64,000 bases of DNA from a bacterium (lineage in GTDB: Bacteria; Myxococcota_A; Bradymonadia; REDH01). Position 1 is the first letter of the stretch; every line of letters begins with the position of its first letter. Positions 1,878-49,158 of this stretch are shown piece by piece. The stretch covers positions 30,293 through 94,292 of the forward strand of contig JAUICO010000001.1 of NCBI GenBank assembly GCA_030427825.1, given 5' to 3'. Below the pieces are notes generated by a model. That model ran no database searches. It was not told where the DNA came from and was given only the letters and a program-made list of their open reading frames with translations. Position numbers and translations under genes: made by a program.

Positions 1878-2561
1878 CTACTGCCGGCTCTCCGCATGCC
1901 GAATGTCCTTTCCTTCGACCAGGTAGATCACCTGTTCGGAGAGATTTGTGACGTGGTCGGCCATTCGCTCAAGATACTTGGCGATCGACTGCACATCGAT
2001 GCCGCGTTTCACGGAGTCGTGGTTCTCGTACATGACCTCAAGCACGTCCTTGAAGACAAGCGCGTAGAGCTCATCGACCGTGTCATCCATGTCGATGACA
2101 GCGCGCGCCTTGTCGGTGTCCCGCTCGAGGAAGGCTTCCATCGTCATCGTGAGCATTTCACGAACCGCGTCGCCCATCTTCGGGATGTCGATGTACGGGC
2201 GTAGCTGCGGTTGCTTCTTCAGGCTGATCGTGCGCTCTGCGACATTGACCGCGAGATCGCCGATGCGCTCAAGGTCCGTCACCATCTTCATTGCGGTTGT
2301 GATGAAGCGCAGGTCAGAGGCCATCGGCTGCCGGCGGGCGAGGATGAGCATGCACAGCTCGTCGGTCTCCATCTCGTCGCGATTGACCTCGCGATCCGCA
2401 AGGATGACCTCAGCGGCACGCTCGTTGTCGCGCTCAAGCAGGGCGTTGATCGCAGCCGCCGTCATGTCGTTGACGCGCTCGGCCATGATGATGATGCGGC
2501 GGCGGAGCTCCTGCAGCTCCTGCTCGAACTCTTCGCTGGTTCTTCGAGAGTGGTCGCTCAT
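1878..2561 (-). CDS. phoU: phosphate signalling complex protein PhoU
   Basis: 227 aa with two PhoU repeats and the typical acidic helical sequence ([12 protein letters not shown]... [16 protein letters not shown]). 4-nt overlap with pstB. Confidence 0.9.
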
Positions 2562-4356: not shown

Positions 4357-4357
4357 G

Positions 4358-5287: not shown

Positions 5288-5354
5288 CTTGTTTGCAGCT
5301 CTCGAGCAGGGGAATCGAAACCGGGAGTATCAGCGGTCGCGACGGGGGCGACTC

Positions 5355-6353: not shown

Positions 6354-6457
6354 GTTTGTTCTCGTTGTTCCCGGAATGGGTGGTGGTTGAGTGATCGGTT
6401 GATGGTGTTTGTGTTTGCGATTGTGATTGAGCGCCGAGGCGTCGTGAGAGGACCGGT

Positions 6458-25503: not shown

Positions 25504-27384
25504 TCAAGAGCCCTCCTCGGACGGCAACGAGTTGCGGTAGAGGATGAGACCGAGAACGGCGATTCCGGACGTGGCGACGACAATCTTTATCTCTTCAGGG
25601 ATATCCTTGAAGAGCAGCAGCGAGTCGAGCTCGAAGCCGCCGATGATTGCGATGCCCAGGATCAGGTCCAGGGCTGCGGCGCCGGTGATCAGTCCGGCCG
25701 CTGCCAGTATCGATTCGCTTCGCTGCCTGCTGCCTCGCTCAGCGGCCCAACGGAACGCAGCGCCAATCAGGATACCGGTGCCCAGATATGCGGGCAGGTA
25801 GATGCCGACTGCCAGCGCCATCGCGGGCAGCACTTTGCCGTTTCGGTCGCCGACCATCTCGATCATGACGGCGACCACGCCCAGGCACGCGCCGACCATG
25901 ATCGGTGTCCACGGGACTGCCGAGTTGATCAGCAGGCCTTCGGTCAGGGTGGCGAACATTTCGCCCTGCGGCGCGGGCAGGTCCGGGCTGCCGAGGGTGT
26001 ATGCTTCGTGAGCAACGTAGAGCGCGAGTGGCACGACGATTGAGCCCGCGATGAGGCCGATAACCTGCGCCGGAAACCCGTCCTGCACCCGGACGCCGCA
26101 GAGCTGCATCGTCTTGTAGTCCTGGCTGGAGTCGTTGGCAGCGCAGACCGCGACGCAGGCGGCGACGATCAGCGCGGTAAGCACGTAGACGTCGTCGATC
26201 GACTGTCGGCCCAGCCCCACCGCGACAAGGCAGAGGACGAGGGTGGTTACGAAGATGGTGCCCGAAACCGGCGACGCCGAGCTGCCGACCTGCAGTGAGA
26301 GGATCGCGCCGAGGGTTACCATCAGCATGCACATGACGAAGATGGTGCCGCCCATGGCGAAGCTGAAGCCGGTCAGGCCGTCCGTCGCGAAGAGCCACCC
26401 GATGAGAATGACAAAGCCGACAACGATGCTGCCTATGAGCATTTTTCGCTTCGCGGGATCGATCTCCAGGGTCATGTCGATGCCGGCGGTGGTGCCTGTG
26501 CCGCTGTTGACGTGAACGGATGCCCTTCGCGTGCTCACAAACTTGATGAGCGAATACGCAACGGCCACGGTCATGGCGCCTCCACCGACCCAGCGCATCG
26601 AGTTTGCCGGCCATGCGGCTGCGGCCGCCGACGCGGGCTCAATCGTCGTGAGAAAGAAGTCGCCGGCGAGGCGGAAGAAGCTGCCGAGAAAGACCAGCAG
26701 GGCGGTTGCAAGGGTAAGCAGGCCGCCGATACCGATGTAGATCGGCGTGAAGGGCAGATCGAAAGTAAAGTCCCGGGAGCCGGATTCGCCGGTGATAGAG
26801 CGCTTCCAGATGACGACGTGCTCTGTCGCGAGTCCGATGTAGGCGATGAGCGGCGCCAGGAAGCTCGCGGCGAGGCCCGCCACAAGCGAGCGACCGAGGC
26901 GGGGTCGCCTCGCAGAGTGCGGATCCAGCGCCGCTGTCTCGATCATTGTCTCGCAGGCCCGTGCCTCAGGCGCAGGCAGGGTCGGGTCGGTGAGGAACTT
27001 GCGCGTTGCGAGCCCCACAAAGCCGAAGCCGATCAGTGAACCCGCGATGGACATGATGATGAGGGTGACGACGTCGACCGGAGGTACTTCCAGTCCGAGG
27101 TTCTTGTGCAGAATCTGTACCAGCGGTGCGGTGAAGATCACGCCGGCCGTGACGGCCATACCCGCTGAACCTGCGACCTGGGCAATGTTCAGAAAGCGGG
27201 ATCCCTCGCCGCGAGCGATGCGGCCGCTGAAGGCGGCCCAGGCGAAGAGGATCACCAGCGGACTGACGCCCGGGGTTATCCCCGCCTTCAATCCGGCGAT
27301 CACCAATGTAGCGGCCAACACCGTCGAGACGATGAGGCCGAAGATCATAGGAAAGATGTCACGCCTGTTCATCGAAAAACGCAC
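25504..27384 (-). CDS. OPT-family oligopeptide transporter
   Basis: 626 aa, about 16 TM helices. OPT-type N-terminal GITPGVSPLVILFAWA and Gly-rich helices throughout. Confidence 0.75.
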   Translation of the reverse strand: MRFSMNRRDIFPMIFGLIVSTVLAATLVIAGLKAGITPGVSPLVILFAWAAFSGRIARGEGSRFLNIAQVAGSAGMAVTAGVIFTAPLVQILHKNLGLEVPPVDVVTLIIMSIAGSLIGFGFVGLATRKFLTDPTLPAPEARACETMIETAALDPHSARRPRLGRSLVAGLAASFLAPLIAYIGLATEHVVIWKRSITGESGSRDFTFDLPFTPIYIGIGGLLTLATALLVFLGSFFRLAGDFFLTTIEPASAAAAAWPANSMRWVGGGAMTVAVAYSLIKFVSTRRASVHVNSGTGTTAGIDMTLEIDPAKRKMLIGSIVVGFVILIGWLFATDGLTGFSFAMGGTIFVMCMLMVTLGAILSLQVGSSASPVSGTIFVTTLVLCLVAVGLGRQSIDDVYVLTALIVAACVAVCAANDSSQDYKTMQLCGVRVQDGFPAQVIGLIAGSIVVPLALYVAHEAYTLGSPDLPAPQGEMFATLTEGLLINSAVPWTPIMVGACLGVVAVMIEMVGDRNGKVLPAMALAVGIYLPAYLGTGILIGAAFRWAAERGSRQRSESILAAAGLITGAAALDLILGIAIIGGFELDSLLLFKDIPEEIKIVVATSGIAVLGLILYRNSLPSEEGS

Positions 27385-27887
27385 TCCCTGCCGGCTCGCC
27401 GCCCGACACCTTCAGCCGGTCGAATTCGACGGCGTCATCACGACGCAGATATCGCAGATGCCGGGAGGTCTACCGGCGCGCTGTCCACGCTACAAGCGCT
27501 GCCTGCGCACAGCTGTCGTCGGCTCCGGGGACGTCCGATGATACCCGACGCCACACCCGGGGACGCGACGTGGATGATTCCGCGTGTTGAGCGCTCGTTT
27601 CGGCATCTGCCGCGCCTTCAACGGAGTAGGGGGCGCAGCGGGCGCCGACACCCGTGTGAGCGAGCGGTCGAGCGCCGGCGTGGGCCCGCGCACTCCGGCG
27701 AGCGTCCTTCGACAACCTGCGGAACCTCCGGGCGCCCGGGAGCCGCCCAGCCGCGTTGCGGATGACGACCTCACGGGCGGAGTGACGTGCGCCGTGGACG
27801 GACCGCGACAGGATCATCGGCGAATATTTCCCATCCGGACCGCGATTTGACAGTGTGGAGGGCCTGAACTAGCCGAGCCGGCCCCCT

Positions 27888-28943
27888 GTGCAGCGGACTG
27901 GAATGACGCGCCGATCGACCAGAGCTTCGCGGATTCGCAATCAGCGCGCCACCGAGCGCAGACGTTCCCTTGTGTCATATCACGCATCGGATGCTCCGCG
28001 GGGTGACGCGGTATCGGAGGAAGCGGTGGTCCCGGGGAGCGAGTCCGCGCCGACATCGACGCCCCCCGCAACTCCTAAGGCCCCCCGCGCCGACGCCTCA
28101 GCAGCGAAGCCACGATCGAAGACGCCGACGCTGCGCCATGTGGTGCAACAGCCCGATCAGGTGGCTCCGGTGGAACAGGCACCGGCGTTGAAGGACTCGG
28201 AGCTTCCGTCATCACTGTCGAGGTCGGCAAAGGCAGAGCCCGCCTCACCGGCGCGCACAGGAGACACCGGCCGCTTCCTGCCGCTCTCTGAGCCTGAACT
28301 CACCCCGGCATCTGTGGAGGCGGTCGAAGAGCCCACAACAGGCAACTTTGAGAAGGCCGGTGCCCCGGCGGCCGAGGAGTTTGTTGCGGCGCCGAAGCAG
28401 GCGCTGCAGGACTTCGAAGCACCGCCTCAGCCGAAGCTGCCGCCTCGCTGCATTGCACACGCCGGCACCCACCTTCTCGCGGCAACCGCAGCCGACGTCA
28501 TCGAGGGCTGGCGTGCGATGCGTGATCGATTCGGCTCTACGGCAACCAACAAGGTGAAGGCGCGCCGCGCGATGATCGACTGGTTCGAATCGCAGCGAAA
28601 CATCTGCTCAGGATCCGTGTTCTGGTACGGCGACTTCTTCGTGGTTCGCTCGTGCGTGGTTCGCGCTGATCAGCCGGCCGAGGCGGCGGGAGCCGAGGGG
28701 TGGTTCATCGCCTTTGATCCGAACGGGTCCGGATACGTGGACCACCCGCTTTTCGCTGACATGTTTGAGGTGACGCGCGGGGCTGCCATCACCGTACACG
28801 AGCTGGGCTCGCCGGCCTGGCTGTCAGAGGCGCGGCGGCTTCATGAAGCGCGCGCACTGGGTCTGGAGCAGGCGCGCCCCTTCACACCGGCGTCCATCGA
28901 CAGCATCGGTGCCCATGATTTCGTACGAGGCGAGGCGAGATGA
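27888..28943 (+). CDS. hypothetical protein: disordered basic/Pro-Ala-rich N-half and globular C-terminal domain
   Basis: Only the C-terminal third (MIDWFESQRNICSGSVFWYGDFFVV...) looks globular. 24 nt upstream of the pseudokinase gene. The N-terminal half could be a high-GC frame artefact, so the real start may be later. Confidence 0.4.
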   Translation: MQRTGMTRRSTRASRIRNQRATERRRSLVSYHASDAPRGDAVSEEAVVPGSESAPTSTPPATPKAPRADASAAKPRSKTPTLRHVVQQPDQVAPVEQAPALKDSELPSSLSRSAKAEPASPARTGDTGRFLPLSEPELTPASVEAVEEPTTGNFEKAGAPAAEEFVAAPKQALQDFEAPPQPKLPPRCIAHAGTHLLAATAADVIEGWRAMRDRFGSTATNKVKARRAMIDWFESQRNICSGSVFWYGDFFVVRSCVVRADQPAEAAGAEGWFIAFDPNGSGYVDHPLFADMFEVTRGAAITVHELGSPAWLSEARRLHEARALGLEQARPFTPASIDSIGAHDFVRGEAR

Positions 28944-28967
28944 GCCCGCAACACAGAGCAGATTGGT

Positions 28968-30479
28968 ATGACTGAGTCGCGATTTTTCTGTCCGGTTAGC
29001 GCCCGCCTCACGGCCGGAAACGCCCCTCTATACACGCCGATCGACGTGCCTCCGGGTCGTCTGGGGGAAGATGGACCGGACCTCGCGGAGATCGCCGTCG
29101 AAGTCGGTGAGCGCATCGGTATCGAAGATCCGGCATCGTCCGATGCGTGTTTCGCAGCGTTCGCAGGCTCGCCGGGAGTCGTGCTTGTTTCGCGTGAACC
29201 CTTCGACGTCCTGGACCTCGAAGAGATCACCGCCGACCTGATCGGCGCCGTTGCGCACCGAGAGCTGACCGGAGTGCGGCGCGTCCAGGTTACCGGCAGC
29301 GGCCACGTTTTTGTGTGGTTGGATTTTCAGCCGGTTTGCGGACTTGTGAGCACGCCGGGAGAGATTCGCGCGCTCTTCGACGACCTGAAGGCGCTCCACG
29401 CCGCCGGTCTCGTACACGGCGGCATCAACGACCGCTTCATCAACCCCTCGAACCCCACCGGTCGCCGTGTATTCGGTACCGGTCTCGCGTCTGCGTATGC
29501 CGCGTGGCGCCGCGCAGCGGGCATTGAGCTGGGCGACCTGACGGCGGATCCCCGCTTCGCGTCCCCCGGTGAGCTGAGCGGCGAGGGCCCGTCCGAAGAA
29601 GGCGACAGATTCGCGCTGGCAGCGATCGCAGTCACTGAGATGCAGGCAGGCGATGACGCGGGAGCCACGGCTCCGGTGCAGGGCATCAACGCATTTCTCG
29701 ACCGCTCCGGTGCCCGCGCGTCCCTGCTCTCGCGGGCTGAAGAGTTGGGTGACCGGACGGCCTCTCCGATTCTCAAAGCTGCGCTTGAAGGCGCGCCGCC
29801 GAAGTCCTTTCCGATCTGGCGGGCCGGGTTGGCCGCGCTGGCCGTGCTCCTTCTGGCGGGCCAGTGCATGCAGGTGATGCGTCGTCCGGCCCCGGCCCCG
29901 GCCCCGGTAATTGCCGGCGGTGAAGTGGACCCCGTTCGATGCAACGGCCCCGGCGTGCAACTCATTGGCGATGAGTGTCGTCTCGACGCGAACGTGGGCC
30001 GCTGCGGAGACAACACCTACTTCGACCCCATGTCAGCCAGCTGCCTCGCCATCGCGCCGCGACGTGAGGCAAACGACGACCCGATCGATGATACGCCTCG
30101 GCGCCGGGCAGACACCGGCGCCGTCGCTTCTGCCTGGATTCACCCCGTCATGGAGTGCAACCCCTCGCAGCGATTGATCGTCGAGAAGATCTCTTTCTCG
30201 AACGATGACATCAATCTCTCGATCGGTGAGAAAGGAACCATCGCGCGCCAGGCGGCGTACTGCCAGGGCGAGGCTGAGGTCATCTATTACACCAGCGTGC
30301 CGGGACTCGAGGACCGAGCGCGAACCATTTACGAAGAGTTTCGCTCTTCGTCCCACTGTAGCGACGAATGCCGCGCGCGGCTGCCCGAAGTACCCACAGC
30401 GATCGTGTATGTGCCGTACATCGGGCTCATCGAGCGTGCCAACGACCACTACCTGATGTTTCACTGCTGCGCGTCTTGA
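28968..30479 (+). CDS. single-pass membrane protein with cytoplasmic degenerate kinase-like (pseudokinase) domain and extracytoplasmic Cys-rich domain
   Basis: LKALHAAGLVHGGINDRFINP aligns to the kinase catalytic loop with HRD replaced by HGG. GTG replaces DFG. TM segment PIWRAGLAALAVLLLAGQ. C-terminal region with about 14 Cys. Confidence 0.5.
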   Translation: MTESRFFCPVSARLTAGNAPLYTPIDVPPGRLGEDGPDLAEIAVEVGERIGIEDPASSDACFAAFAGSPGVVLVSREPFDVLDLEEITADLIGAVAHRELTGVRRVQVTGSGHVFVWLDFQPVCGLVSTPGEIRALFDDLKALHAAGLVHGGINDRFINPSNPTGRRVFGTGLASAYAAWRRAAGIELGDLTADPRFASPGELSGEGPSEEGDRFALAAIAVTEMQAGDDAGATAPVQGINAFLDRSGARASLLSRAEELGDRTASPILKAALEGAPPKSFPIWRAGLAALAVLLLAGQCMQVMRRPAPAPAPVIAGGEVDPVRCNGPGVQLIGDECRLDANVGRCGDNTYFDPMSASCLAIAPRREANDDPIDDTPRRRADTGAVASAWIHPVMECNPSQRLIVEKISFSNDDINLSIGEKGTIARQAAYCQGEAEVIYYTSVPGLEDRARTIYEEFRSSSHCSDECRARLPEVPTAIVYVPYIGLIERANDHYLMFHCCAS

Positions 30480-31858
30480 ACCCGACGGGCCAGAGGAGCG
30501 GCGTCGGTCTGAACGACCCGATTCCGCAACATCAGCGTGTCGCAGTGTTTGGTTTGGGCGCGTCCGGGCGCGCCGCCTGCCGTCTGCTGACAGCGCTCGG
30601 CAAGTCCGTTGTGGCGTGCGACAGCCGCACCGGGCTGTCATGCGACGACCTGCCTGACTCCGTAATCGTTGTGCAGGGCAGGCTCTCATTGGAGGGCGCG
30701 ACGACCGTGGTCCTGTCACCATCGCTGAATCCCGACTGGCCGGAGAACGCAGCGAAGAACGAGCTCGCGCCGGTGTATGCGGCGTGGCGGGACGGCTCTC
30801 TCGATCTCTGGTCCGAGGTCGAGTTGGGCATGTGTGCTTTCGCCGGAAACATCGTCACCGTGGGCGGAACAGACGGAAAGTCGACAACCGCGGCGCTGTG
30901 CGCCCATCTCGCCCGGGCGTCGGGCGTCGATGTGCTGCTCGGCGGAAACTCGTGGACCGCGTTCAGCGACGTGCTGCTGCAGAACCCCGCCGCCGACCTG
31001 GCAGTAGTTGAGGTCAGCGCTTTTCAGAGCTGGGCCGGTCACCGGATGAAACCCGACGCGGCGATCCTGACAAACATCGCGGCCGACCACCTGGACCACT
31101 ACGCAGATGAAGCGGACTATGTAGAGGCGAAACGCCTGATTACCGCGAACCTGGGCATCGGCAGCGCGGTGGTCCTGTGGTCCGGCGATCGGCGGCTTGC
31201 ATCGTGGGTCGACGAGCTCGAGGCTCGCGGCGTGTGTGTTGTTGGGTACGACGGGGCGACCCCCGCGCCGCCCCCTGGGGTGACGGGTACACCGCCGGCC
31301 TGGGACGACGCGCTGCGTGTGCCGGGCGCACACAACCGTCGAAACGCCGCGGCCGCGTTCGAAGCCCTCCGCGCGGTCGGTGTTTGGAAGAGCGAGACCC
31401 ACGAAGCCATGTGGTCGTCGCTGCAATCTTTCGGCGGGCTTCCACATCGCATTCAGTTCGTTCGGGAGCTGGACGGTGTGTGGTGGTACAATGACTCGAA
31501 AGCCACAAACGTACACGCTGCCTGTGTGGGACTCCGCGCGATCGACAGGCCGCTCGTGGCGATCGTAGGCGGTGTCGACAAGGGCCTCGACCTTGTTCCG
31601 CTGATCGAGACACTGAGAAATAGGGCTCACGATGTCCTCGTAATCGGTGAGCTTCGTGAACGATTCTGCGCCGAAGCCGACGGTGCACTCACGACACACC
31701 CTGTCGAGACTCTCGAAGAAGCGATCACTCTGGCTCGCAGACTCGCCAACGACGGAGACGCCGTGACCCTGGCACCGGCATCGTCATCGTTTGATATGTT
31801 TGCGAGCTTCGGTGATCGGGGCGATCAGTTCGCGGCCGGCGTGCAGGCGCTCAGGTAG
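30476..31858 (+). CDS. murD: UDP-N-acetylmuramoyl-L-alanine--D-glutamate ligase (MurD family)
   Basis: Motifs VAVFGLGASG, GGTDGKSTT, VVEVSAFQS, NIAADHLDHY, and C-terminal HRIQFVRELDGVWWYNDSKATN...AIVGGVDKG. TTG at 30476 overlaps the upstream stop as TTGA. The ATG at 30368 would add 36 aa and overlap the upstream gene by 112 nt. Confidence 0.8.
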   Translation: MNPTGQRSGVGLNDPIPQHQRVAVFGLGASGRAACRLLTALGKSVVACDSRTGLSCDDLPDSVIVVQGRLSLEGATTVVLSPSLNPDWPENAAKNELAPVYAAWRDGSLDLWSEVELGMCAFAGNIVTVGGTDGKSTTAALCAHLARASGVDVLLGGNSWTAFSDVLLQNPAADLAVVEVSAFQSWAGHRMKPDAAILTNIAADHLDHYADEADYVEAKRLITANLGIGSAVVLWSGDRRLASWVDELEARGVCVVGYDGATPAPPPGVTGTPPAWDDALRVPGAHNRRNAAAAFEALRAVGVWKSETHEAMWSSLQSFGGLPHRIQFVRELDGVWWYNDSKATNVHAACVGLRAIDRPLVAIVGGVDKGLDLVPLIETLRNRAHDVLVIGELRERFCAEADGALTTHPVETLEEAITLARRLANDGDAVTLAPASSSFDMFASFGDRGDQFAAGVQALR

Positions 31859-31863
31859 GCGTT

Positions 31864-31890
31864 CGCCCCTGCGGGGCGTTTCGTTACTTT
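31864..31890 (+). terminator. Rho-independent terminator downstream of murD
   Basis: Perfect hairpin CGCCCC-tgc-GGGGCG followed by a tract that becomes a U-rich run in the transcript (TTTCGTTACTTTC). Confidence 0.5.
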
Positions 31891-31984
31891 CTGCCGTGGG
31901 CGTCAGTCTGCGACAGGAGACGCTTCACAATGCAGCCGGGCAGCCTGGCAGCCGGCGACGCCCTTCGCGCTACTGCGTGCAGTC

Positions 31985-32487
31985 TCAGGTCTCGCGCAGC
32001 TCGTAGCGCGCTACCAGCGCCATCGTGAGCAGAATACCGAGCAGGAAGAGGCCGCCTGCGTATCCGAACACAGCGAAGGCTTCTTTGGCTTCATCGCGTC
32101 CCATCGCGGGTCCGTAAATTCCCGCGAACAACCACACGAAGGGATAGAGAAATCCGCCCGCCGCCGTAAGATACGCGGCGGAGAGCTTCAGCCTCTCAGG
32201 TGCTTTGACGCGCCCGAGCAGTAGCAGCACCCCGAGCACCATCGCGCCGATACCGGTCGCATGGAAGTGAAAGCGTTGGTAGTAGCGCCAGTTCTTGCCT
32301 GTCTCAGCTTCGATCATCGCCGACTTCTCAACAGGATCCTCTATTGCCTGTATTTGTTCGTTGCGTTCCAGGCCGGCCGCGATCCTGTCCTTGAACATGT
32401 CTTCGTTCACGCCGAAGAAGATTGCGATGAGGACGCCACCGGCCATTGCTCCGAGGGCGAGTAGAAACGGAATCTTATTGAGCATTG
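31985..32487 (-). CDS. integral membrane protein (4 TM), unknown function
   Basis: Probable start at MLNKIPFLLALGAMAGG (32487). The ORF-track N-terminal extension is Arg-rich junk. Confidence 0.5.
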
Positions 32488-32908
32488 TATGTCTCCGGTC
32501 TGGGTGATGCCTGCGGATTTCTCCGCCAAAGTCTCGTGCTTCTCTGCCCTTCCGCATTGCTCGGACGCCCATCATCGCGCCCGGGACCCGGTCGGAGCGG
32601 TGGGCCGCCGCACGACCGCCGCCCGCGCCGTATGTTTGTTGCAAACATCGGCACCGGCATCGGCCATGTCGAGCGCGCGATCGACGGTAGGTTCAGCAAG
32701 GTGGTGCAGGTAGAGTCGCCCGGGCGCGGCTCCTTTCAGCCCCGGGCCTGGGGTTCTCGTCTGTCAGTGGATAGAAAGCTCGGCAAAAGAGTGCCGCAGA
32801 CACCGTTCGCTTTCGTAGCTGACGGCCCCGCACCGCCGAAATCAAATATCCGGTTGGATTCCTAACACGGCTACGTTTGCTGTGCGTGTGTAGCACTCGA
32901 GGTTTGGC

Positions 32909-38852: not shown

Positions 38853-41003
38853 TCATGGGTTGGCGACGCTCGAGCCGGTCGCTGCGTCGACACTCGCCGC
38901 GTGCCGGGGCGCAACCACATAGAGAACGGACGGCAGCCTGTTCAGCTGGTGCATCTTCCGCGTGTAGAAGGCCTCGTCGCCGGATTCGTCGTCACTGAGC
39001 TCCAGGCGTGCGATGATCAGGTCTGCGTCTTTGCATCTCTCGCGCATCGCGCGGGCCTCACTGCGATCGGGCATCGCCAGCACGTCACGTATCTGCACCT
39101 CACTGCCATAGTGTTGGGTCGCCGATCGAATCGCGGCTCGCCGACGCAGTCCTTCTCCCTCGTCGGAGACGTAGGACAGGACGGTGATCGCGCAGCCCTC
39201 CCAGCGCTGCCCGGACGCCAGCTGTGTGGCGATGTCGAGCATGGTCGCGCCGAGCACATTGTCCGTCCACCAGACGTAGATGTCTCTGCGTTCGCCGAAG
39301 CCGCGGTCGCGATGTTCGTGAACCGCGATGACCCTGCGGCCGAGGGCACTCAGGTCGCGGATTGCGCCGAGAAACGCCGCCGGATCGCGACCGGTTCGGG
39401 GCCAGCCGACGAGCGCTGTGCTGGCTTCGAATCCGCCCACACCGTAGCTCTGGGCCACCTGGCCGATCCCGCTCCACACCTGCGGGACGACCTCGACTCG
39501 AGCGAGCAGGCCGGGATATCGTTTGTGCACGGTTTGCTCGAGCGCCGAGCGCATGGCTCCGCGCTGGTCGCCGGTGGTGCGCAGCGCCCCTTCGACAAGG
39601 TAGACGACAGTCGCGATTCCACGACCCTCGGCGAGCAGACCGGCGACCTCGATGGTCTTCTCGTTGTCGTCCGGGTCACCAACAAAGGCGACGATGTTTG
39701 GATGTCGATCGCTGGACTGCAACCCGCGGTGGGCGACCCTTCGCAGCGCGCTGTGTGCAAGGGACAGCCACAGTTCGTCCGCGCCCGATCCGCTGCTCTC
39801 CTGTCGCCCGCGCTGTGCCAGGGTGTGAATACCGGCAATCAGTAACAGGGCCGGAATCAGAATCAGCGACTGAATCACGCTGCCGATGTACAAAGCAAAC
39901 ACAGAGGCAGCACATGCAACGACAGCAGAGACCCGGCGTTCAGGCCGCCAGGCCGTGGCTGCGGACCATTCATTGATCGCGACCGCGAGGCACAGGGCGG
40001 CGACGACCGCCAGGCTCATCACAGAGGCAGCGACACCCGCGCTGTGCATGTTTGCCGGCAACGCCAACGCCAGCGTCAGTGGGAGCACCGCGACCAGCGC
40101 TATGCGGCGGCCGTCGAGCGCTCCTTCCGTACGGGCGAAAAGCCGCGGTGCCACCCGGTCCAGTGCGAGTGCGTGCAGGGCGTCTGCGCAGTAGCTGATT
40201 GCTGCGTGTGCCGCCGAGAACAGAGTCAGCCACAAGCCGATGTGAAGCAGAAAGCCGGAGCGGGTGTATTCCCAGAAAGCCGCCGGACCTTTGGCAAGCA
40301 TGAGGTCGCCGAGGCGCAGTCCGGCCCACAGAGCGCACACACCGAGGATGGTCGCTGCGGCTATTACCGCCGCAGTTTGCGCCCGTGCGGAGGCCCTCCA
40401 GGTGTGTGCCGTTGTTTGATGTCTTCCCAGTGGTAGCAGGGCGGCGGCGAGCGCAGGCATTACCAGAGCAAGTGCACGGGTCAGGTCCCCCCGCTCAGGG
40501 TGCCACCAGCGAATCTCGGTTGGAGGTTTGTCCGAGCTGCCGGTCAGGATGAGAATCAGGGTCAGCGCCACGCCGGCCAGTCCGAGTATACGCACGACGG
40601 GGGTAACGCGGGGGCCGGCGGCGACGGAGGCCGTGACTGCGACGCAAAAGAGGGTCGCTCCGACGGCTGCGGGCAGCTCGGTGATCAGGGACCAGGAGTA
40701 GGCGAACGCGGTTGCGGCGAATGCGGCGGCGAACGCCATCGCCGGCAGAGACGTCCATGCGAGCGCGGCGCCGGTTGCGTGGCCGAAGACGCGGGTCAGC
40801 GTGTGTGCGTCGCGGCGAGCCCTTGCGGAGCGTGTTGACAGCACGCTCGTCGCGACGGTGCCGCTCAGCGCGAGCAACGCGGCGAGCGCGCCGAGACAGA
40901 GGAGGGCCACCGCAAGACCCGACGCGGCGACGACTGCGGGCAGGACGATGGCTGCGACGCCGGTGACGGCGGCGGCGACCATCGCGGCGCCCAGCTGCTT
41001 CAC
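38853..41003 (-). CDS. APC-superfamily transporter with large cytoplasmic C-terminal domain (cation-chloride cotransporter / SLC12-like)
   Basis: 12 or more TM helices in the N-terminal 430 aa, then a roughly 280-aa soluble domain. 4-nt overlap with the OmpA-family gene. Confidence 0.5.
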   Translation of the reverse strand: MKQLGAAMVAAAVTGVAAIVLPAVVAASGLAVALLCLGALAALLALSGTVATSVLSTRSARARRDAHTLTRVFGHATGAALAWTSLPAMAFAAAFAATAFAYSWSLITELPAAVGATLFCVAVTASVAAGPRVTPVVRILGLAGVALTLILILTGSSDKPPTEIRWWHPERGDLTRALALVMPALAAALLPLGRHQTTAHTWRASARAQTAAVIAAATILGVCALWAGLRLGDLMLAKGPAAFWEYTRSGFLLHIGLWLTLFSAAHAAISYCADALHALALDRVAPRLFARTEGALDGRRIALVAVLPLTLALALPANMHSAGVAASVMSLAVVAALCLAVAINEWSAATAWRPERRVSAVVACAASVFALYIGSVIQSLILIPALLLIAGIHTLAQRGRQESSGSGADELWLSLAHSALRRVAHRGLQSSDRHPNIVAFVGDPDDNEKTIEVAGLLAEGRGIATVVYLVEGALRTTGDQRGAMRSALEQTVHKRYPGLLARVEVVPQVWSGIGQVAQSYGVGGFEASTALVGWPRTGRDPAAFLGAIRDLSALGRRVIAVHEHRDRGFGERRDIYVWWTDNVLGATMLDIATQLASGQRWEGCAITVLSYVSDEGEGLRRRAAIRSATQHYGSEVQIRDVLAMPDRSEARAMRERCKDADLIIARLELSDDESGDEAFYTRKMHQLNRLPSVLYVVAPRHAASVDAATGSSVANP

Positions 41004-41953
41004 GGGGTTGTGATGATGTCCAGGTTGGGCACCATCACGATCTCGATGCGGCGGTTCAGCGCGCGCTCCTCGCGGGTGTCATTGCCGGCTCGGGGACGGA
41101 ACTCACCGTACCCTGCGCCCGAGAGGTTGCCCGGGTAGCATCCGTTTTCCTGCAGAATCTCGACGACGGACAGCGCACGCGCCGCCGACAGGTGCCAGTT
41201 GCTTGGAAATCGGCTGGTGCTGATCGGCACATTGTCTGTGTGCCCTTCGACCTGAAAGCGTCGGTCAGGAAACTCGGCGAGCACGCGGGCGATGCTGCTG
41301 AGCGCACTGCGACCTTCGTCGCCGACCCGCGCGCTGCCGGGATCGAAGAGAATATCCTGGGGCAGGTTGAGAACCATGCGACCGTTCTCAATCGATATCG
41401 AAAGCTGTCCGGCGTCGATGAGCGCCTGAAAGCGGCCCAACATGTCTTGATAGATGCGATTCTGCTCGCGAGCCTCTGCCTCGATCTGATTGAGTCGCTC
41501 GATGCGCTCCATCAGGGCCGCTCGCTCGCTCTGACCTGCTGCGAGCTGCTCTTCCGTGTTGACCCGAGCGCTGCGCTCTACACCGAGCGCGCGGTTTGCG
41601 TCGTTGAGTTCGCTGTTCGAGAGTTCAAGCTGTGTGGCGACTTCGATCAGCTCGGCGCGGGCTTCATCCAGGAGTCTCTGCCGCTCTTCGGTGTCGCGAA
41701 TCGTGTTGCGAATTGACGCCTCGCAGATGTCGAGGCGGTGATTGCGTTCGGCGCCCACAGCTTCGAGGTTAGCGATGCGCTCGTTTGCTTCCGCCAGCGT
41801 GGACGCAGTGGTCTCGTATTCCTGAGAGACACCGGCGAGCTCATTCAGCGTTTCTTCGTGTTTGGATTTGGGCACACAGGCTGCAGCCAGCGTGATGATC
41901 GCGGCGGCGCAGAGAACCTTGTGTGTGGGCAGCGTTGTCATGTCATGTCTCAT
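41000..41953 (-). CDS. OmpA/MotB-family lipoprotein with central coiled coil
   Basis: Start at MRHDMTT (41953), giving lipobox ITLAAAC. Long heptad-like coiled coil. C-terminal OmpA domain (FQVEGHTDNVPI...NWHLSAARALSV...NRRIEIV). Confidence 0.75.
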   Translation of the reverse strand: MRHDMTTLPTHKVLCAAAIITLAAACVPKSKHEETLNELAGVSQEYETTASTLAEANERIANLEAVGAERNHRLDICEASIRNTIRDTEERQRLLDEARAELIEVATQLELSNSELNDANRALGVERSARVNTEEQLAAGQSERAALMERIERLNQIEAEAREQNRIYQDMLGRFQALIDAGQLSISIENGRMVLNLPQDILFDPGSARVGDEGRSALSSIARVLAEFPDRRFQVEGHTDNVPISTSRFPSNWHLSAARALSVVEILQENGCYPGNLSGAGYGEFRPRAGNDTREERALNRRIEIVMVPNLDIITTP

Positions 41954-41972
41954 AGAAGTGTGTTCGGTCCTT

Positions 41973-43229
41973 TCATGGACGGCACATCGGAATCGGGTCG
42001 TTGATGATCGTGTCCGTGTTCTCGTCGCAGGAGTCATTGGTACAGGGGTTGCCATCGTCAATGGGCAGCGGCAGCCCCGGGATGCAACCTGCGGCCCCGT
42101 CGCAGCGCTCGGTGCCGTTGCAGAAGATGCCGTCGCCGCAGAGGCCATGCATCGGGCGGTGTTGGACCGTGCGCAGGCCTTCGTCGCAGATGGTCTCGGT
42201 GCATGCGATGCCGTCTTCGTGGGGGCGGCCGGGTGAGCAGGTGCCCTGAATGCAGATCTCTTCGCCATTGCAGAAGATGCCGTCCTGGCAGTCGGCGGAT
42301 GTCATGCAGCCGGTGGGCATGGCAGGAACTACCTCTTCGATCCGACCCGTCGGCTCCGGTTCGGGCTGCACAGGCTCGGGCTCCGGTGCCGCTTCTGGGC
42401 CGTCGTTGCGGGCGGTGACCGGTGCGCGGTTGGCCGTCGGCATGTCGAATTGAAGGACGAAGCAGAGCAGGAACTTCGCAAAGAAGCCGTCCTTGGCGCT
42501 CTCTACCTGGCCGCTGTAGTCGTTGACGATGTTGGGGTTGACCTGGGCCCAGCCGAACTCGGAGCGCAGGAACACCAGCTTGCCGAAGTAGTGGTCGAAG
42601 CCGAGCGCTACGCCCAGACCCTTCTGTTCGTTGCCGGCCGCGTAGAGAAGCTCGATGTCCGCGGCCCAGTGGCCGAAAGCGTCGCCGAGGCGCCCATCAG
42701 CGAACTCGACTTCGGCGCTGGCATCGCGCTCCAGGTGGATGCCGACGCTGAAGGCGTGCATGTTGTATCCGATGCGTCCTCGATAGCCGATGAAGGGGGC
42801 GGCGCCGAAGGTCGTGGGAAAACGCCCGATGATGCGGCGGCCTTCGGAGTCCCGAATGGTGCCGCGCTCATCGTTGGTGCTGCGCAGGCCGTATCCGCCT
42901 CGCAGTACGAACTCGACCGAGGGCTGCCAGGTTGGCGACCTGTCGCCGAACACTTCGTCGCCGAACTCCGAGGCGGTGAAACGGAAGTCCGTATAGAGGC
43001 CGTTCGAGATGGCGCCGAAGCTCTGCCAGAAGATCTGGCCGGTTGCGAACCCGGGCAGCGAGAGCCCGAGGCCGAGACCTACGCGCGCGTTCATCGACTC
43101 GCCGGTCCATGTCAGCTCGTAGGTCGTCGAGGGGGTGCTGTCGTCCTGCGCCAGGGCGGGCGACGCGGCGAATGACGCGCAGGCGATTGTGATCGCAAGT
43201 GCGCGGGCTGTCAGTCGGGCTGCATGCAT
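41973..43229 (-). CDS. secreted protein: N-terminal outer-membrane-beta-barrel-like domain fused to C-terminal Myxococcus-type Cys-rich repeats
   Basis: Signal peptide. About 250 aa of amphipathic alternating-residue strands (GLGLGLSLPGF...FGWAQVN), a PEPEP linker, then repeats DGIFCNGEEIC, DGIFCNGTERC and DDGNPCTNDSCDE. Confidence 0.55.
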   Translation of the reverse strand: MHAARLTARALAITIACASFAASPALAQDDSTPSTTYELTWTGESMNARVGLGLGLSLPGFATGQIFWQSFGAISNGLYTDFRFTASEFGDEVFGDRSPTWQPSVEFVLRGGYGLRSTNDERGTIRDSEGRRIIGRFPTTFGAAPFIGYRGRIGYNMHAFSVGIHLERDASAEVEFADGRLGDAFGHWAADIELLYAAGNEQKGLGVALGFDHYFGKLVFLRSEFGWAQVNPNIVNDYSGQVESAKDGFFAKFLLCFVLQFDMPTANRAPVTARNDGPEAAPEPEPVQPEPEPTGRIEEVVPAMPTGCMTSADCQDGIFCNGEEICIQGTCSPGRPHEDGIACTETICDEGLRTVQHRPMHGLCGDGIFCNGTERCDGAAGCIPGLPLPIDDGNPCTNDSCDENTDTIINDPIPMCRP

Positions 43230-43328: not shown

Positions 43329-45362
43329 TCAGCGGCGTACCCGTGAGATGGTTCCATCGATGCCTTCGAGGATCAACGTGATGGACTTGGCCTCGCGCGC
43401 GCCGTCGCCGTCCACGTCGATATCATTGGGCGCCAGGGTATCCAGGAGCCCGATCAGGGACTCCGGTGCGAGGGGCAGATCGGCGGGGTCAATACTGCGA
43501 ATGGCGGTCTCAAGGTCCGTCTTGAGAACTGCGCCGGCGAGCAGCCCGTTGAAGCCGGTGACTTCACCGCCGCTGAGCACGGGAGTCATCTCGATGGTGA
43601 CCATGTAGATAACGAGGTCCAGGGTGGTTGTTGCGCTCAGGGGTATCGAGAAGGGCATCGACGTGGTCGCGCCTCCGCCTCGCACGGTGGTTCCATCGAA
43701 GTTCGAGGCGATCGAGATCAGGGGCTCGCAGCTCGCAGAGTCCACCGTCGCGTCGTCGACTTCGTAGATGCAGGCGGCGTTCTGGTAGTCGCAGAGCTGG
43801 TTCGCCGGATCGAGACGTGACTGATAGACGGCGAGGGTGAAGTCATCGTTGGGGAAGTCGCGAAACTCCATCAGGAGCATCAGATCGCCGTTGTTGATCC
43901 CGTCGCCCAGGGGTTCGTTCGCGAACGCGCCGAGGGGGCCCAGGGTATTGTCACGCTGACCGTCGCCGTCGATGTCGAGTGCATTGCCCGAGGCCTCGTT
44001 GGCGCCGAGTTGTAGCGATTTCACCTTGCTGACGTCTCCGAAGACCGGCTGGCAGGCACATCCGCTGAGGTCCTGCGCGACGCACTCGCCGAAGTCACAG
44101 ACCTCGCTTGCGGTGCATTCAACGCCGTCGTTGCAGGGATTTCCGGAGCGCGGATTGTAGAAGCAGCCGGAGTTTACATTGCAGTTGTCGACGGTGCAGT
44201 CGTTGGCGTCGTCGCAGGTGCGCGGGGCTCCGACGCAGACACCGTTCGAACATGTATCGTCCTCGGTGCAGGCGTTGCCGTCGTCGCAGGCTACCTCGAC
44301 CTGTGTCCATGTGCACTGCGCTGTGTCCGGGTCGCAGGTGTCTTCGGTGCAGGGGTTTCCATCGTCGCAGACCGACGTTGCGCCGCTGCAACAGGGGTTG
44401 AAGGTGGGCAGGTATTCGCAGCCGCTGACCGGAAAGCAGATGTCGATGGTGCAGAGGTTGCCGTCGTCGCAGGGCGGATCCGTGCCGGGCATACAGGTAC
44501 CCGATTCGCAGGTATCGCCGCCGGTACACGGGTTTCCATCGTCGCAGGGTGCTGTGTTCAGTGTGGTTGTGCAGCCGTCCACCGTGTCGCAGATGTCATC
44601 GGTGCACGGGTCGTTGTCGTTGCAGACCACGGGGTCGCCTTCGCAGGCGCCGTCTACGCAGTGGTCTCCGACGGTGCAGGCGCTGCTGTCGTCGCAGGTG
44701 GCGAGCGCGTCGTTGGGAACGTTTGTATACACACAGCCCAGGTTGGGGCTGCATGTGTCTACGGTGCAGACGTTGTCATCGTTGCAGAGCACGCCGTCGC
44801 CGCCGCCACACGCGCCGGCGCTGCACGTTGTGTCGGTCGTGCATGCGTCGCCGTCATCGCAGGCCGTGTCATCCGCACGAGGGCTCCATTCGTGAGGCGC
44901 CGCCGGGTCGCATGCCAGGCAATCGCTGTCCGGAGATAACGCGTCTTCATCAACGCAGACGTTGTTGATCAGGCAGAGCCCGGCGCGCAGCGTCCACTTA
45001 CAGGTCTTGAATCCGGTGGAGCCGTCCGTCGCCGTGCACGCGTCATCGGTACAGGCGAGGCCGTCATCGCAGTCGGAAGCGGTGTTGCATCGTCCGACTG
45101 CGCCGGCGTCGTCGCCGTTGCCGTTGCTGTCGTCGCCGCTGTCCGACTCTGTGGTGTCGCCGGTCTCGCCCGGGTCGGTGTCTTCAACGACGTCTGAGGG
45201 CGTGGTGTCTTCGTTGCCCGCGTCCTGGCCGGTGTCCTGGCCGGTGTCACTGGCGCTCGGATCGCTTCCGCCACACGCGCCGAGGGCCACCGCGACGAGA
45301 GCACACGCGATCGTGAGGAGTACGGCTCGAAGCGTCGGACCGCTGTTTGTTTGTTGTCTCAT
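43329..45362 (-). CDS. large surface lipoprotein with about 12 tandem Myxococcus cysteine-rich repeats plus a C-terminal non-repeat domain
   Basis: Lipobox ALGAC. An acidic, low-complexity linker follows. Repeats of the form CDDGNPCTDDICD, CNDNDPCT and CDDGNLCTIDIC. C-terminal about 270 aa without Cys. Confidence 0.7.
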   Translation of the reverse strand: MRQQTNSGPTLRAVLLTIACALVAVALGACGGSDPSASDTGQDTGQDAGNEDTTPSDVVEDTDPGETGDTTESDSGDDSNGNGDDAGAVGRCNTASDCDDGLACTDDACTATDGSTGFKTCKWTLRAGLCLINNVCVDEDALSPDSDCLACDPAAPHEWSPRADDTACDDGDACTTDTTCSAGACGGGDGVLCNDDNVCTVDTCSPNLGCVYTNVPNDALATCDDSSACTVGDHCVDGACEGDPVVCNDNDPCTDDICDTVDGCTTTLNTAPCDDGNPCTGGDTCESGTCMPGTDPPCDDGNLCTIDICFPVSGCEYLPTFNPCCSGATSVCDDGNPCTEDTCDPDTAQCTWTQVEVACDDGNACTEDDTCSNGVCVGAPRTCDDANDCTVDNCNVNSGCFYNPRSGNPCNDGVECTASEVCDFGECVAQDLSGCACQPVFGDVSKVKSLQLGANEASGNALDIDGDGQRDNTLGPLGAFANEPLGDGINNGDLMLLMEFRDFPNDDFTLAVYQSRLDPANQLCDYQNAACIYEVDDATVDSASCEPLISIASNFDGTTVRGGGATTSMPFSIPLSATTTLDLVIYMVTIEMTPVLSGGEVTGFNGLLAGAVLKTDLETAIRSIDPADLPLAPESLIGLLDTLAPNDIDVDGDGAREAKSITLILEGIDGTISRVRR

Positions 45363-45372
45363 TCGGTCTCCG

Positions 45373-48300
45373 TCAGCGCAGTCGGCCGTATACGATTGTG
45401 TTTCCGTCGATGTGTGTGTTGAAGCCCGGATTCGTCTCGGGCTCGATGGCGATCACCAGGGTGCCCGGTGCCACACCGAGGTCTTCGCTGATATCGATCT
45501 CGGGCAGGGGGAACTCAGCGATGGGCTCGCCGCCGCCGAGCAGATCGCCGAGGGAGGGGATCAGCTGGGCCTCAAGCAGGTCACGGATGACCAGCTCGGA
45601 GTTGATCAGGTTCTCCTGTTGGACTTCGAGATCCATTCGAACGTTTTCGATGGACTCGATGGTAATCTGGATGGCCCCGTTGCGTGACGCCAACGACAGA
45701 GGCGCTTCAAAGGCGACGTATCCGATGATGTCGATGTCCTGACCGAAGAGGTTCATGTGTGCGTCGATGCGGAGGTCGCCGAGGTAGAGCTTGAGCTCTC
45801 CGTCCCGGCAGTCGCTGGCGAGGGGTGGCAGCCAGGCGCTGACGTTCATCTCGAGATCGTTGACGCCGAACTCCGTCAGGTCGAGGCCGCCAAGCAGCGA
45901 CTCATCGACCGGGAAGTCCATGAGCCCTCCCCACCAGGCCGCGCGCAGAATCGCGTTCAGAAGGTCATCGGTGAGCACAAGTTCAAGGGGTGTGATCTTG
46001 GGAATCACGGTGATCTGCGGCGGCGTGCCGCATCCGTCGCGCAGGGGAACGCCGAGGTTGTCGTCGAAAGGATACCCGGTTGCGACTGCGCGTTCGTTGG
46101 TGGAAGCCCACGCCTTGAGGTTGAAGGTTCCGCCCGGGGGGCCGGGCACGGAATCCTCAAAGTCGATACCGGAGAAGTTGCTCGCCAGCGCGATGGGGAT
46201 CTCGCCGGAGCCGTCAAGGCGCGGCAGATTGACGTCAAGGTTGAGGGCAAGTCCGCTGAATGCGCTTGCCAGCGTCGGTCCCAGAATGTTTGTCAGCTCG
46301 CCGGTAAGCGACGATTCAAGGCTGGACACGAGGTCATCGCGTATGACCAGCTCTACCGCGCCAAGGATGATGTTTGTCCACCCATTGTCGGCGTACACAT
46401 CCATGCCGAGAATCGATGTGTTTGCGTCGCCAACGCGGATAACCACCTCGCCCTGGGAGTTCGTCGATATTAGCAGCTCCGCGGTGACCGTGATGCTGTC
46501 TGCGGTGATTCCGCCACCGCCGGAACCGCCCGCGACGCCACACTTGAAGCCGTTGCAGTCAAAGTAGAGGCGGCCGTTGATACCCTCAAGGACAAGTCCG
46601 ACCAGCAGTCCGCCGTCGAAAGCGTCGAGCCGTACGTCGGAGCTGCTGTAGCCGATGGAGCGAACATAGATGTCGTAGCCCGCTTCGGAGGCGATAGGAT
46701 CGCTGGTCCCAAGAAGAGCGCCGAGGTCGTAGCCGTCGATCACCGTTTGAAAGATCATCGCGAGGTCGCTCGGCGGCGGCGTCAGGCGATCGTCGATCGT
46801 CTGCTGCGCGAGGTAAAGCACCATTCCCGGATCAACATTGGGGCCGTTCTGATAATCGCGGGACCAGTGGAAGGACTGGATGCGCTGTTTTCGCGTACCG
46901 AGGTCGTCTATTGCGACCATCTCAAGTGTGTTGTGGCCGACGGTCGCCGCGTAGGGGTAGGCGAATGTGTAATTCCATTCGCTGCCGAGGACCGGGACGA
47001 TCGGCACTTCCGCGCCGTTGATCTTGAACGAGACGATCGGTCCACCGCCGGAGTTGAGGCGTCCGGTAACGATTACGACCGGAGGCAGGTTGTTGCTTTC
47101 GATCGTCGCGGCTCGCAGAGGAAAGTCCACCTCGATCTGCGGCCGACAGGAGTTGGTGGAGAGCACTGTGTGGGTGCACCCGAAGGTCGCGTCGCAGCCG
47201 TCCTCTGTACACGCGCGACCGTCGTCACAGTTGATGGTCGCGCCGAGGCAGTCGCCATCCATGCAGGAGTCGCCCGCGGTGCACGCGTTCATGTCATCAC
47301 AGCTGAACGTGTTTGCTTCGTTTACGCAGCCGAGATCAGAGTCGCAGTAGTCCGTCGTGCAGCTGTTTCGATCGTCGCAGATCGGTTCATCGACGCCCGT
47401 CACGCAGGTGCCGGCAACGCAGCGGTCGCCGATGGTGCAGGCGTCGCCGTCGTCACACGACAGGCCGTTGTTTACGTGCAGCGGTCCGATACCGGGCACG
47501 CAACGGTCATCGGTACAGGGATTGTTGTCATCGACGTCGATCGGCGTGCCGAGGCACGCGCCTTCGGTGCAGGTGTCTGCCTCGGTACACAGGTCACCGT
47601 CGTTGCAGCTGTTTGTGTTGAACGGGAACACGCAGCCTTCGTCCGGGTCGCAGAGCTCGTCGGTGCAGGGGTTCGTGTCAAAGCAGAACGCGTCGATCGG
47701 GATGGCTCCGCAGCCGGTGGCGTTGCAGTAGTCTGCGGTGCACGCGTTGCCATCGTCGCAGGCGCCGGGGAGCCCGACGCACGCACCGTCTGTGCAGGCG
47801 TCACCGATGGTGCAGGAGTCCTGATCGTCGCATTCGATGTCATTTGCTGCCGGCCCGTTAAATACGCATCCCGTCGCCGGGTCGCAGGAATCCGCGGTGC
47901 ACAGGTTGCCATCGTTGCACACTGTTTGTGTGGTGCCGACGCAGCTTCCGCCGGAGCACACATCGCCGCCGGTACACAGGTCCCCGTCGTCGCATGTCGC
48001 CGTGTTGTTCGTCTGTACGCAGGCCCCGGCCTCGCAGGCGTCGTCCGTGCACTCGTTCTCGTCGTCGCAGTAGAGCGCGATGCCCAGGCATACCCCGGCG
48101 CGGCAGGCGTCGTTGGTTGTGCAGCTGTCACCGTCGTCGCATGTAGCGCTGTCATTCAGGGTCCAGGCGCCGGGATCCACCGCGACGTTGCACACCTGGC
48201 AGGGCTGCAGGGGATCGGCCTGCTGGTGGTCGTAGCAGTCGCCGTCAATGTCGCATTGATCGTCGGTGCAGCAACCGTCGATGAGCTCGTGAACGCAGCC

Positions 48301-48684: not shown

Positions 48685-49158
48685 CGTGCGGTCTCGGGAT
48701 TGGGTTCGGGCCATTGTACCGGTCTTCGCGGCTGCGCGCGACCAATCCGCAAAAAGCTCCCCGCAGGTCGCAGCCGGCAGCCCCGGCCGGCGCGCAGGTG
48801 ACCGGGGCGCGCGCATCGGTGTCAGTAGTTGTAGGCGCCGACCCCGCGCCACCGTGAGTCCGTTGTGAACATATCCGTTGATAGCGACGAGTCGTCCCGA
48901 GATCGGCGAGGTGGATCCGTGGATCCCCTCGCCGAGTGGAGTCCGGGCGGTGCGTTGAGTGGCGATTTCGCCGAGACGACCGCACCCCGCCGGCATCGAC
49001 GGGTTACGCGAGCGTTGTCCTTCCGGAGCTTTGCGGGCAATGCCCAACCACGAGCACAACAGACTCTGCCTGCGCAGCAGGCACCAGGGGCAATGAATCG
49101 ATTTCGAAGGGCATGGCGACACATCGCCGCACTCCCGATAGTATCGCGGGCTGTCGCG

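Follow-up and report, generated by a model that had tools for sequence, protein, structure and literature searches.

A previously undescribed family of membrane pseudokinases encoded upstream of murD in a Bradymonadia-like sub-lineage

Only for the PASTA kinases of Gram-positives and Actinobacteria is it understood in detail how bacteria adjust cytoplasmic cell-wall precursor synthesis to wall status. These Hanks kinases (PknB, StkP, PrkC, and PrkA) consist of an N-terminal cytoplasmic kinase fold, one transmembrane helix, and a wall-binding outer module. Their function is tied to peptidoglycan synthesis, and Mur ligases are kinase substrates in Actinobacteria. In the actinobacterial MviN-FhaA pair of the ActPs3 family, a pseudokinase is fused to the flippase, and the system depends on PknB phosphorylation. 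In M. tuberculosis, the dead kinase domain carried by MviN (MurJ), a membrane protein of the precursor pathway, serves as a docking platform (PMC12599244). EssB/YukC is a bitopic scaffold protein whose N-terminal cytoplasmic pseudokinase has degenerate versions of all three catalytic motifs and of the Gly-rich loop (PMC12599244). The same 2025 review names seven Hanks-derived families of bacterial pseudokinases, ActPs1-3, GLW, CP1, DYD, and DLHK; the GLW family is proteobacterial and membrane-associated, and its HRD is replaced by G-L-W and its beta3 Lys by a poly-Leu/Trp motif (PMC12599244). Here, we analyze a 64-kb stretch of contig JAUICO010000001.1 from a bacterium assigned to Bradymonadia (hereafter, the window), in which a gene for a membrane protein with the PASTA-kinase layout, which we call PK, lies between a gene for a soluble protein, X, and murD.

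The three genes are open reading frames (ORFs) on the plus strand within 27888-31858. Gene X (27888..28943) encodes a soluble protein with a conserved C-terminal domain, PK (28968..30479) encodes a 503-aa single-pass membrane pseudokinase, and murD (30476..31858) encodes a predicted 460-aa UDP-N-acetylmuramoyl-L-alanine--D-glutamate ligase. In one deep sub-lineage, murD ends a conserved same-strand unit, X-PK-murD. The PK proteins are a previously undescribed family of bacterial pseudokinases.

The cytoplasmic domain of PK (29073..29807, approximately residues 36-280) has a kinase fold. PK is not matched by any Pfam or NCBIfam model at E<=1, including Pfam Pkinase. However, an AlphaFold2 (AF2) model built on 13 homologues has a local confidence (pLDDT) of 83-95 over residues 40-180 and a global score (pTM) of 0.51. 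When this model is compared with the PDB by Foldseek, 420 matches are obtained at E<=1e-3, and the 50 listed are all protein kinases. PAK1, CaMKII, ULK1, DAPK1, VRK1, and PknB are among the matches, with TM-scores of about 0.5 and a high root-mean-square deviation (rmsd). Sequence comparison points in the same direction. Alignment by hhalign of the PK family with the PknB kinase domain gives a probability of 82%, and the weak PDB profile matches found by hidden Markov model (HMM) search are all protein kinases, mostly bacterial Hanks-type.

The hhalign and HMMER alignments to PknB locate the catalytic positions. The HRD motif corresponds to H150-G-G, the catalytic-loop Lys to Asn154, the catalytic-loop Asn to Phe157, the DFG motif to G170-T-G, the APE motif to S-P-G-E, and the alphaF Asp to D213. 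PK also lacks a Gly-rich loop (GxGxxG), and the place of the beta3 Lys is taken by Arg76 (in L-V-S-R), a position that is Arg, Trp, or His across the wider family. PK lacks the catalytic residues and is therefore a pseudokinase by the usual definition, not a kinase. An earlier sequence-only reading of the window had described a dead kinase with HGG at HRD and GTG at DFG, and had named structure prediction of the 28968..30479 product as a check; the kinase fold is indeed found, with the catalytic residues replaced. Residues D59, P122, H150, R156, G170, Y177, W180, R181, D194-P195-R196, and D213 are invariant in the family, which is conserved under purifying selection with this new invariant residue set. 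A few distant members keep H-G-D at the HRD position. Preceding the kinase fold, residues 1-35 (28968-29072) contain a Y-C-P-x-S-A-R...L-x-P-x-D motif that is conserved family-wide, distant members included, in a part of the model where AF2 confidence is very low. It may act as a linear motif, either for docking or as a pseudo-substrate.

PK contains one hydrophobic segment, at approximately residues 283-304 (29814..29879), with a Kyte-Doolittle maximum of 1.84 at residue 286, and the AF2 model has a helix at 283-304. Since there is no signal peptide and the kinase fold is at the N-terminus, we infer an N-in/C-out topology. The 199 residues after the membrane segment contain 10 Cys, all conserved, compared with 3 in the 282 residues before it, in agreement with the single-pass protein with a Cys-rich ectodomain expected from the earlier reading. 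Four of the conserved Cys (C325, C337, C346, and C359) are in a beta-hairpin segment (29940..30050, approximately residues 325-361), which is modeled with low to moderate confidence. Six are in a C-terminal extracytoplasmic alpha/beta domain (30150..30476, approximately residues 395-503).

A separate model of residues 388-503 has a pLDDT of 87.9 and a pTM of 0.81, with the order beta-alpha-beta-alpha-alpha-beta-beta. OmpA-like peptidoglycan-binding domains rank first for this domain by two independent structure-comparison methods, with borderline scores: the top Foldseek matches, 3td3 and 5u1h, have an E of 3e-3, a probability of 0.97-0.99, and a TM-score of about 0.5, and none reaches E<=1e-3. 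At the sequence level, the ectodomain has no Pfam match, OmpA (PF00691) included, and no PDB profile match, and its alignment with E. coli Pal by hhalign gives a probability of 0.35%. OmpA-like domains bind diaminopimelate through an Asp in a T-D loop and an Arg in an R-R-A helix. Compared by eye with these OmpA motifs, an invariant L-E-x-R-A in the PK ectodomain may correspond to the R-R-A helix. We tentatively regard the modeled C-terminal domain as OmpA/MotB-like, which would add some plausibility to a role in envelope sensing.

PK has few relatives. A word-indexed search of 5.8 billion clusters yields 13, of which 12 are full length and 40-47% identical to the window PK. When 1.84 billion representatives are searched exhaustively with a profile, 25 proteins are obtained at E<=1e-10, which share the cytoplasmic domain and have varied C-termini; the same search also matches longer proteins solely at profile positions ~130-230 (the C-lobe). 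An alignment scan of 185,579 species-representative genomes, a set without the genome of the window, finds no relative, indicating that the family is rare.

As a further check, the sequence-only reading had proposed looking for the gene arrangement in related genomes. X-PK-murD is present in seven distinct loci, namely the window, L002/L003, L004, L090, L091, L096, and L097. In these loci PK is 41-47% identical to the window PK, and MurD is 43-52% identical. Another four PK proteins are encoded on contigs that match those of clade MurDs in length. Every locus with a full-length PK orthologue has murD downstream (7/7), and no exception was found. Two of the loci come from a blind test: the MurDs of L096 and L097 were chosen from a neighbor-joining (NJ) tree without support values, their neighbors not being known, and both turned out to lie in the order OPT(-)-DUF2203(-)-X-PK-murD. 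PK-linked MurDs occupy three distinct positions on the same unsupported tree, suggesting that the arrangement has been kept for a long time. An OPT transporter gene is divergent upstream in all five other loci that extend far enough, with a DUF2203 gene between OPT and X; the DUF2203 gene is missing from this position in the window. Genes outside the OPT-DUF2203/X-PK-murD block vary between loci. X-PK-murD is thus a conserved unit, and it is probably co-transcribed.

In the window, X and PK are separated by 24 nt, the spacing given in the earlier reading. The sequence at 30470-30479 is cgcgtcTTGA, in which TTG at 30476-30478 overlaps the PK stop codon TGA at 30477-30479, forming a four-base TTGA overlap (30476..30479). 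The in-frame start candidates of murD are ATG 30368, which would create a 112-nt overlap with PK, TTG 30476, and GTG 30545, with which a motif would be lost. This motif, L-x-D-P-[LI]-P-x-H, is common to the N-termini of MurD orthologues just before the GxGxxG fold. Since it begins at codon 12 from TTG 30476, with no ATG, GTG, or TTG in between, TTG 30476 is the best-supported candidate for the murD start, as first proposed from the sequence. Gene calling in a second, independent assembly of this sequence also gave TTG 30476. The distance from PK to murD is -4 nt (overlap) in the window, 39 nt in L091 and in L096, 96 nt in L097, 106 nt in L002, about 100 nt in L090, and about 100-174 nt in L004. 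Of the hard-wired translational coupling proposed earlier, the overlap in the window is therefore real and the gene order is kept, but the overlap is absent in the relatives.

Neither X nor murD is found near the genes of distant PK-family members (L005, L092, and L093), so that the pseudokinase domain by itself is not tied to murD. In L092 (15-9791) and L093 (63-9626), PK members of 602-605 aa, with a cytoplasmic domain that is only 33-37% identical, are encoded last in a conserved array of six same-strand genes; the other products, of 470-544, 995, 206, 718, and 163 aa, have no Pfam match.

The murD product is predicted to be a canonical D-Glu-adding ligase. It scores 290.3 bits against the TIGR01087 equivalog model (cutoff 211.95), covering model positions 1-440 of 441, and is far below the cutoff on every other Mur ligase model in NCBIfam. 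Its whole length can be aligned with solved structures, at 2e-45 for 3lk7 and 1.6e-36 for E. coli 1e0d, and its motifs align with 3lk7, 7sir, and 7sy9 as well. In a 12-member clade alignment, the P-loop G-T-D-G-K-S-T-T, E-V-S-A-F-Q, D-H-L-D, the Lys of A-K, H-N-x-x-N, G-L-P-H-R, D-S-K-A-T-N, G-G-V-D-K, and the C-terminal S-S-S-F-D-M-F are invariant. From E. coli MurD structures, we take these residues to serve in binding ATP and Mg, as the carbamyl-Lys, and in the D-Glu pocket. The sequence-only reading had offered as an alternative that this MurD is an L-Glu-adding MurD2, which the model score and the canonical motifs do not support: no epimerase-like partner gene adjoins murD, and the D-Glu pocket motifs look canonical. 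The window protein scores 290 bits on TIGR01087 compared with 325-372 bits for its relatives. At residues ~85-100, the clade has an insertion of ~10 residues (N-P-x-W-P-E-N...) relative to the Persicimonas MurD, and at residues ~265-280 the window protein alone is without ~12 residues in a variable loop before H-N-x-x-N.

The position of murD relative to the cell-division/cell-wall (dcw) cluster was determined with MraY, FtsW, MurG, and MurC queries from the Bdellovibrio dcw cluster, which were confirmed with Pfam and searched by tblastn against every locus fetched. In other lineages, 75 of 77 loci have mraY immediately before murD and usually ftsW-murG-murC after it; only a cut contig and L071 depart from this order. 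The control set includes Polyangiales, Sandaracinaceae, and other Myxococcota. By contrast, tblastn finds no mraY, ftsW, murG, or murC in the 64-kb window, and Pfam scans of most of its long ORFs reveal no dcw-cluster genes. In the Bradymonadia-like loci, no mraY, ftsW, or murG is detected by tblastn within 10 kb of murD, and murC is detected only in L006 and L094. Where source names are given, the closest MurD relatives are labeled as Bradymonadia or Myxococcales metagenome-assembled genomes.

Sister-lineage murDs at similar divergence are found in at least four contexts other than X-PK. In L007/L012 and L008, murD follows a Kelch-repeat gene with a gap of 10-20 nt; in L009 it follows a small ORF near yidC; in L011 it follows an rsmB methyltransferase gene; and in L006 (the Persicimonas caeni complete genome, CP042468) and L094 it forms a murC-murD pair. 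These contexts are best read as a fragmented dcw cluster and a relocated murD across the Bradymonadia-like lineage. The earlier observation that murD lies outside a dcw cluster thus stands for the window, but the trait is lineage-wide and therefore uninformative about PK specifically. The earlier reading had also named a scenario that would speak against it, a sole murD with a dispersed dcw cluster and an internal promoter; of these, the dispersed cluster is what we observe. Given the several other contexts in sister lineages, the murD locus is otherwise labile, yet fixed with PK. We found no literature on the dcw cluster in Bradymonadia, or on MurD2 with MurL.

Two of these contexts have features of their own. 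In L007 (8598-11398) and L008 (8650-11371), and also in L012, the murD product is 51-52% identical and the gene follows one for a Kelch-repeat beta-propeller of 446-460 aa, which in turn comes after two small ORFs of no assigned function. In L006 (8399-11398) and L094 (1647-4548), which represent Bradymonadales proper, murC (TIGR01082, 363 bits) adjoins murD. The ORF upstream of murD in L011, which at 503 aa has the same length as PK, was considered as a PK candidate and proved to be the RsmB methyltransferase.

Protein X has two unlike halves. The N-terminal half is basic, Pro/Ala-rich, and poorly conserved. The C-terminal domain, of ~170 aa, is 46-49% identical over the seven loci, with 42 invariant columns. 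The start codon is uncertain, with GTG 27888, ATG 27903, and GTG 28140 (267 aa, in the other annotation) as candidates. X has no hydrophobic segment and no match in Pfam, NCBIfam, PADLOC, or PDB sequences. A word-indexed homologue search with the C-terminal domain returned only X itself, and the relatives compared here are taken from the fetched loci. An EF-hand reading of the invariant F-D-P-N-G (28700-28760, approximately residues 272-290) was rejected, as the canonical Gly6/Glu12 are absent. The profile matches that it drew, GCAP2 and cofilin at E 0.04-0.2, count as noise, probably owing to chance resemblance.

Upstream of the unit, the OPT transporter gene (25504..27384) points away from it on the minus strand. 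The promoter of X-PK-murD is presumed to lie in the intergenic region between OPT and X (27385..27887), although a scan finds no sigma-70-like site on its plus strand. This region of ~500 nt contains no recognizable gene; a 115-aa minus-strand ORF in it (27470-27817) has no Pfam match. In the PK-murD interval of the four loci scanned, there is no convincing terminator or sigma-70-like promoter, which is weak evidence of co-transcription. A terminator-like hairpin, CGCCCC-TGC-GGGGCG with a T-rich tail, is positioned 6 nt past the murD stop (31864..31888, plus strand), with the stem-loop at 31864-31878 followed by TTTCGTT. The earlier reading had called it a perfect terminator. The hairpin is there, but terminator-like motifs in the region number 3 against 3.0 expected by chance, so that only its position favors it. 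G+C content is unremarkable over the region, and Rfam finds no RNA element in 27300-32900. A defense-system reading was rejected, since PADLOC finds no match for X, PK, or the ORFs downstream. The neighbors of the unit in the window are OPT and MscS genes, and a convergent ORF of no assigned function lies 3' of murD. Farther away, a complete phosphate-uptake set is encoded on the minus strand at 1878-7588 (phoU, pstB, two permease genes, pstS, and a phosphate-selective porin O/P gene). Two adjacent large minus-strand genes at 43329-49122 (677 and 1249 aa) contain Dictyostelium-type Cys-rich CTDC repeats, and an OmpA-family gene (41000-42268, minus strand) is just downstream of them, with one ORF without a Pfam match in between.

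These features allow a mechanism to be proposed. X, PK, and murD would be co-transcribed from the promoter region that precedes X, and in this genome the translation of murD would additionally be coupled to that of PK through the TTGA overlap. The PK ectodomain would read the state of the peptidoglycan layer or anchor the protein to it. In the cytoplasm, the dead kinase domain, with an invariant Y-A-A-W-R-R and D-P-R-F surface in place of an activation segment, would be a scaffold on which X and/or MurD dock. In this way, the cytoplasmic synthesis of precursors would be tuned to the status of the wall without phosphotransfer.

We tentatively lean toward a functional link in which PK couples wall sensing to MurD, and we infer a plausible regulatory link of this kind. 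Its most specific form, in which PK is a peptidoglycan sensor whose dead kinase domain, together with the adaptor-like X, binds MurD and controls it allosterically without phosphotransfer, seems unlikely. Several observations weigh against a functional link. What connects PK and X with MurD is gene adjacency. The start/stop overlap is confined to the window, and the gaps in the relatives could hold a promoter. The distant PK members are without X or murD. The divergent OPT-DUF2203 pair is conserved alongside X-PK-murD; therefore, synteny retained by descent explains part of the signal. The unrelated Kelch-repeat gene is placed as tightly before murD in sister lineages as PK is, so that tight placement may only reflect the need for a promoter. 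In the ectodomain, the loop that carries the Asp in OmpA is ~8 residues shorter and lacks T-D, as judged by eye. The overlap missing from the relatives, the distant PK members without murD, the conserved OPT-DUF2203 neighbors, and the short gap to the Kelch-repeat gene also favor hitch-hiking synteny, murD having left the dcw cluster in an ancestor, landed behind X-PK, and come to use its promoter, with X-PK being an envelope signaling or scaffolding pair without a specific relation to MurD. Because the neighbors of murD vary in sister lineages, we regard hitch-hiking as nearly as likely as the functional link; murD is outside the dcw cluster behind unrelated upstream neighbors in every Bradymonadia-like locus examined. 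Less easily explained by it are the downstream murD in 7/7 full-length PK loci despite 41-47% PK identity and variable flanks, the positive outcome of both blind picks, and the best structural match of the ectodomain, a peptidoglycan-binding fold that fits a wall role.

The remaining alternatives concern the proteins themselves. PK could be active, with H150, R156, D194, R196, D59, and D213 forming an atypical active site (cf. SelO and SidJ) that acts by non-canonical chemistry on a wall precursor, on X, or on MurD. The new invariant polar residues do fall at catalytic-loop and activation-segment positions, H-G-D is found at the HRD position in a few distant members, and pseudokinase folds with alternative chemistry are known, as in SidJ (PMC12599244). 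However, PK has lost the Gly-rich loop, family members carry Arg, Trp, or His where the beta3 Lys would be, and with the DFG Asp and the catalytic-loop Asn both missing no site for a nucleotide or metal is evident, which makes an active PK improbable. We consider it very improbable that this murD is a divergent paralogue of altered specificity (e.g. MurD2), with a canonical murD in a dcw cluster elsewhere in the genome. Its place outside the dcw cluster and its TIGR01087 score of 290 bits, compared with 372 bits for the Persicimonas MurD, would fit a paralogue, but this score exceeds the curated equivalog cutoff, no epimerase-like partner is adjacent, and the motifs for the P-loop, the Mg ligands, the carbamyl-Lys, ATP binding, and the C-terminal D-Glu pocket match solved MurDs and are clade-invariant. 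In addition, the MurD named as such by NCBI in the complete genome of Persicimonas caeni is also encoded outside a dcw cluster, adjoining murC, which points to rearrangement, not duplication. Finally, the kinase fold might be an artefact of a shallow-alignment AlphaFold model, PK being an unrelated membrane protein, as the alignment of only 13 sequences, the pTM of 0.51, the TM-scores of ~0.5 with high rmsd, and the lack of a Pfam match might suggest. This is hardly credible given a pLDDT of 83-95 across the core and sequence-only comparisons (82% by hhalign, HMM matches exclusively to protein kinases) that place HGG on HRD and G-T-G on DFG.

The functional link, if correct, concerns wall-precursor coupling in a Gram-negative predatory lineage, for which the PK family, found beside murD over deep divergence, is a candidate. 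As the organisms are uncultured and we read the link from gene order, its practical weight is limited. The relocation of murD bears on the evolution of the dcw cluster, an otherwise very stable cluster from which murD, and in Bradymonadales also murC, is gone. Compared with the canonical order mraY-murD-ftsW-murG-murC, the MurD enzyme is the same, but the Bradymonadia-like murD has no mraY or ftsW within 10 kb.

Comparison with known proteins sets PK apart. The modeled topology of its C-terminal domain resembles that of OmpA/MotB/Pal domains, at borderline scores, but the domain lacks the T-D loop and has six conserved Cys. EssB/YukC proteins are found in type VII secretion loci of Firmicutes, whereas PK matches no family, has another ectodomain, and is encoded among OPT, X, murD, and MscS. 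The MviN pseudokinase is fused to a flippase, while PK stands alone as a bitopic protein and belongs to another family; X, with its long disordered half and small globular C-terminal domain, is loosely reminiscent of the adaptor FhaA but has no FHA signature. PK has H-G-G at HRD and L-V-S-R at beta3 and thus differs from the GLW family at both defining positions. The PK family is missed by curated models and is absent from the consulted passages of the catalogue in PMC12599244: none of the families described there has the H-G-G/G-x-G motif set, an OmpA-like ectodomain, or an association with murD, and a term search of the review finds no mention of OmpA or Myxococc. PknB is among the better matches of PK by both fold and sequence. 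Nevertheless, PASTA kinases are active and signal by phosphorylation, whereas PK is without all catalytic residues, and the ectodomain of PK consists of a Cys-rich hairpin and an OmpA-like module with no PASTA repeats. Moreover, the PK lineage is Gram-negative, and PK and MurD are linked by gene adjacency instead of the substrate relation of PASTA kinases. If PK does control MurD allosterically, it would be the first pseudokinase to control a Mur ligase directly, in a Gram-negative parallel to regulation by PASTA kinases.

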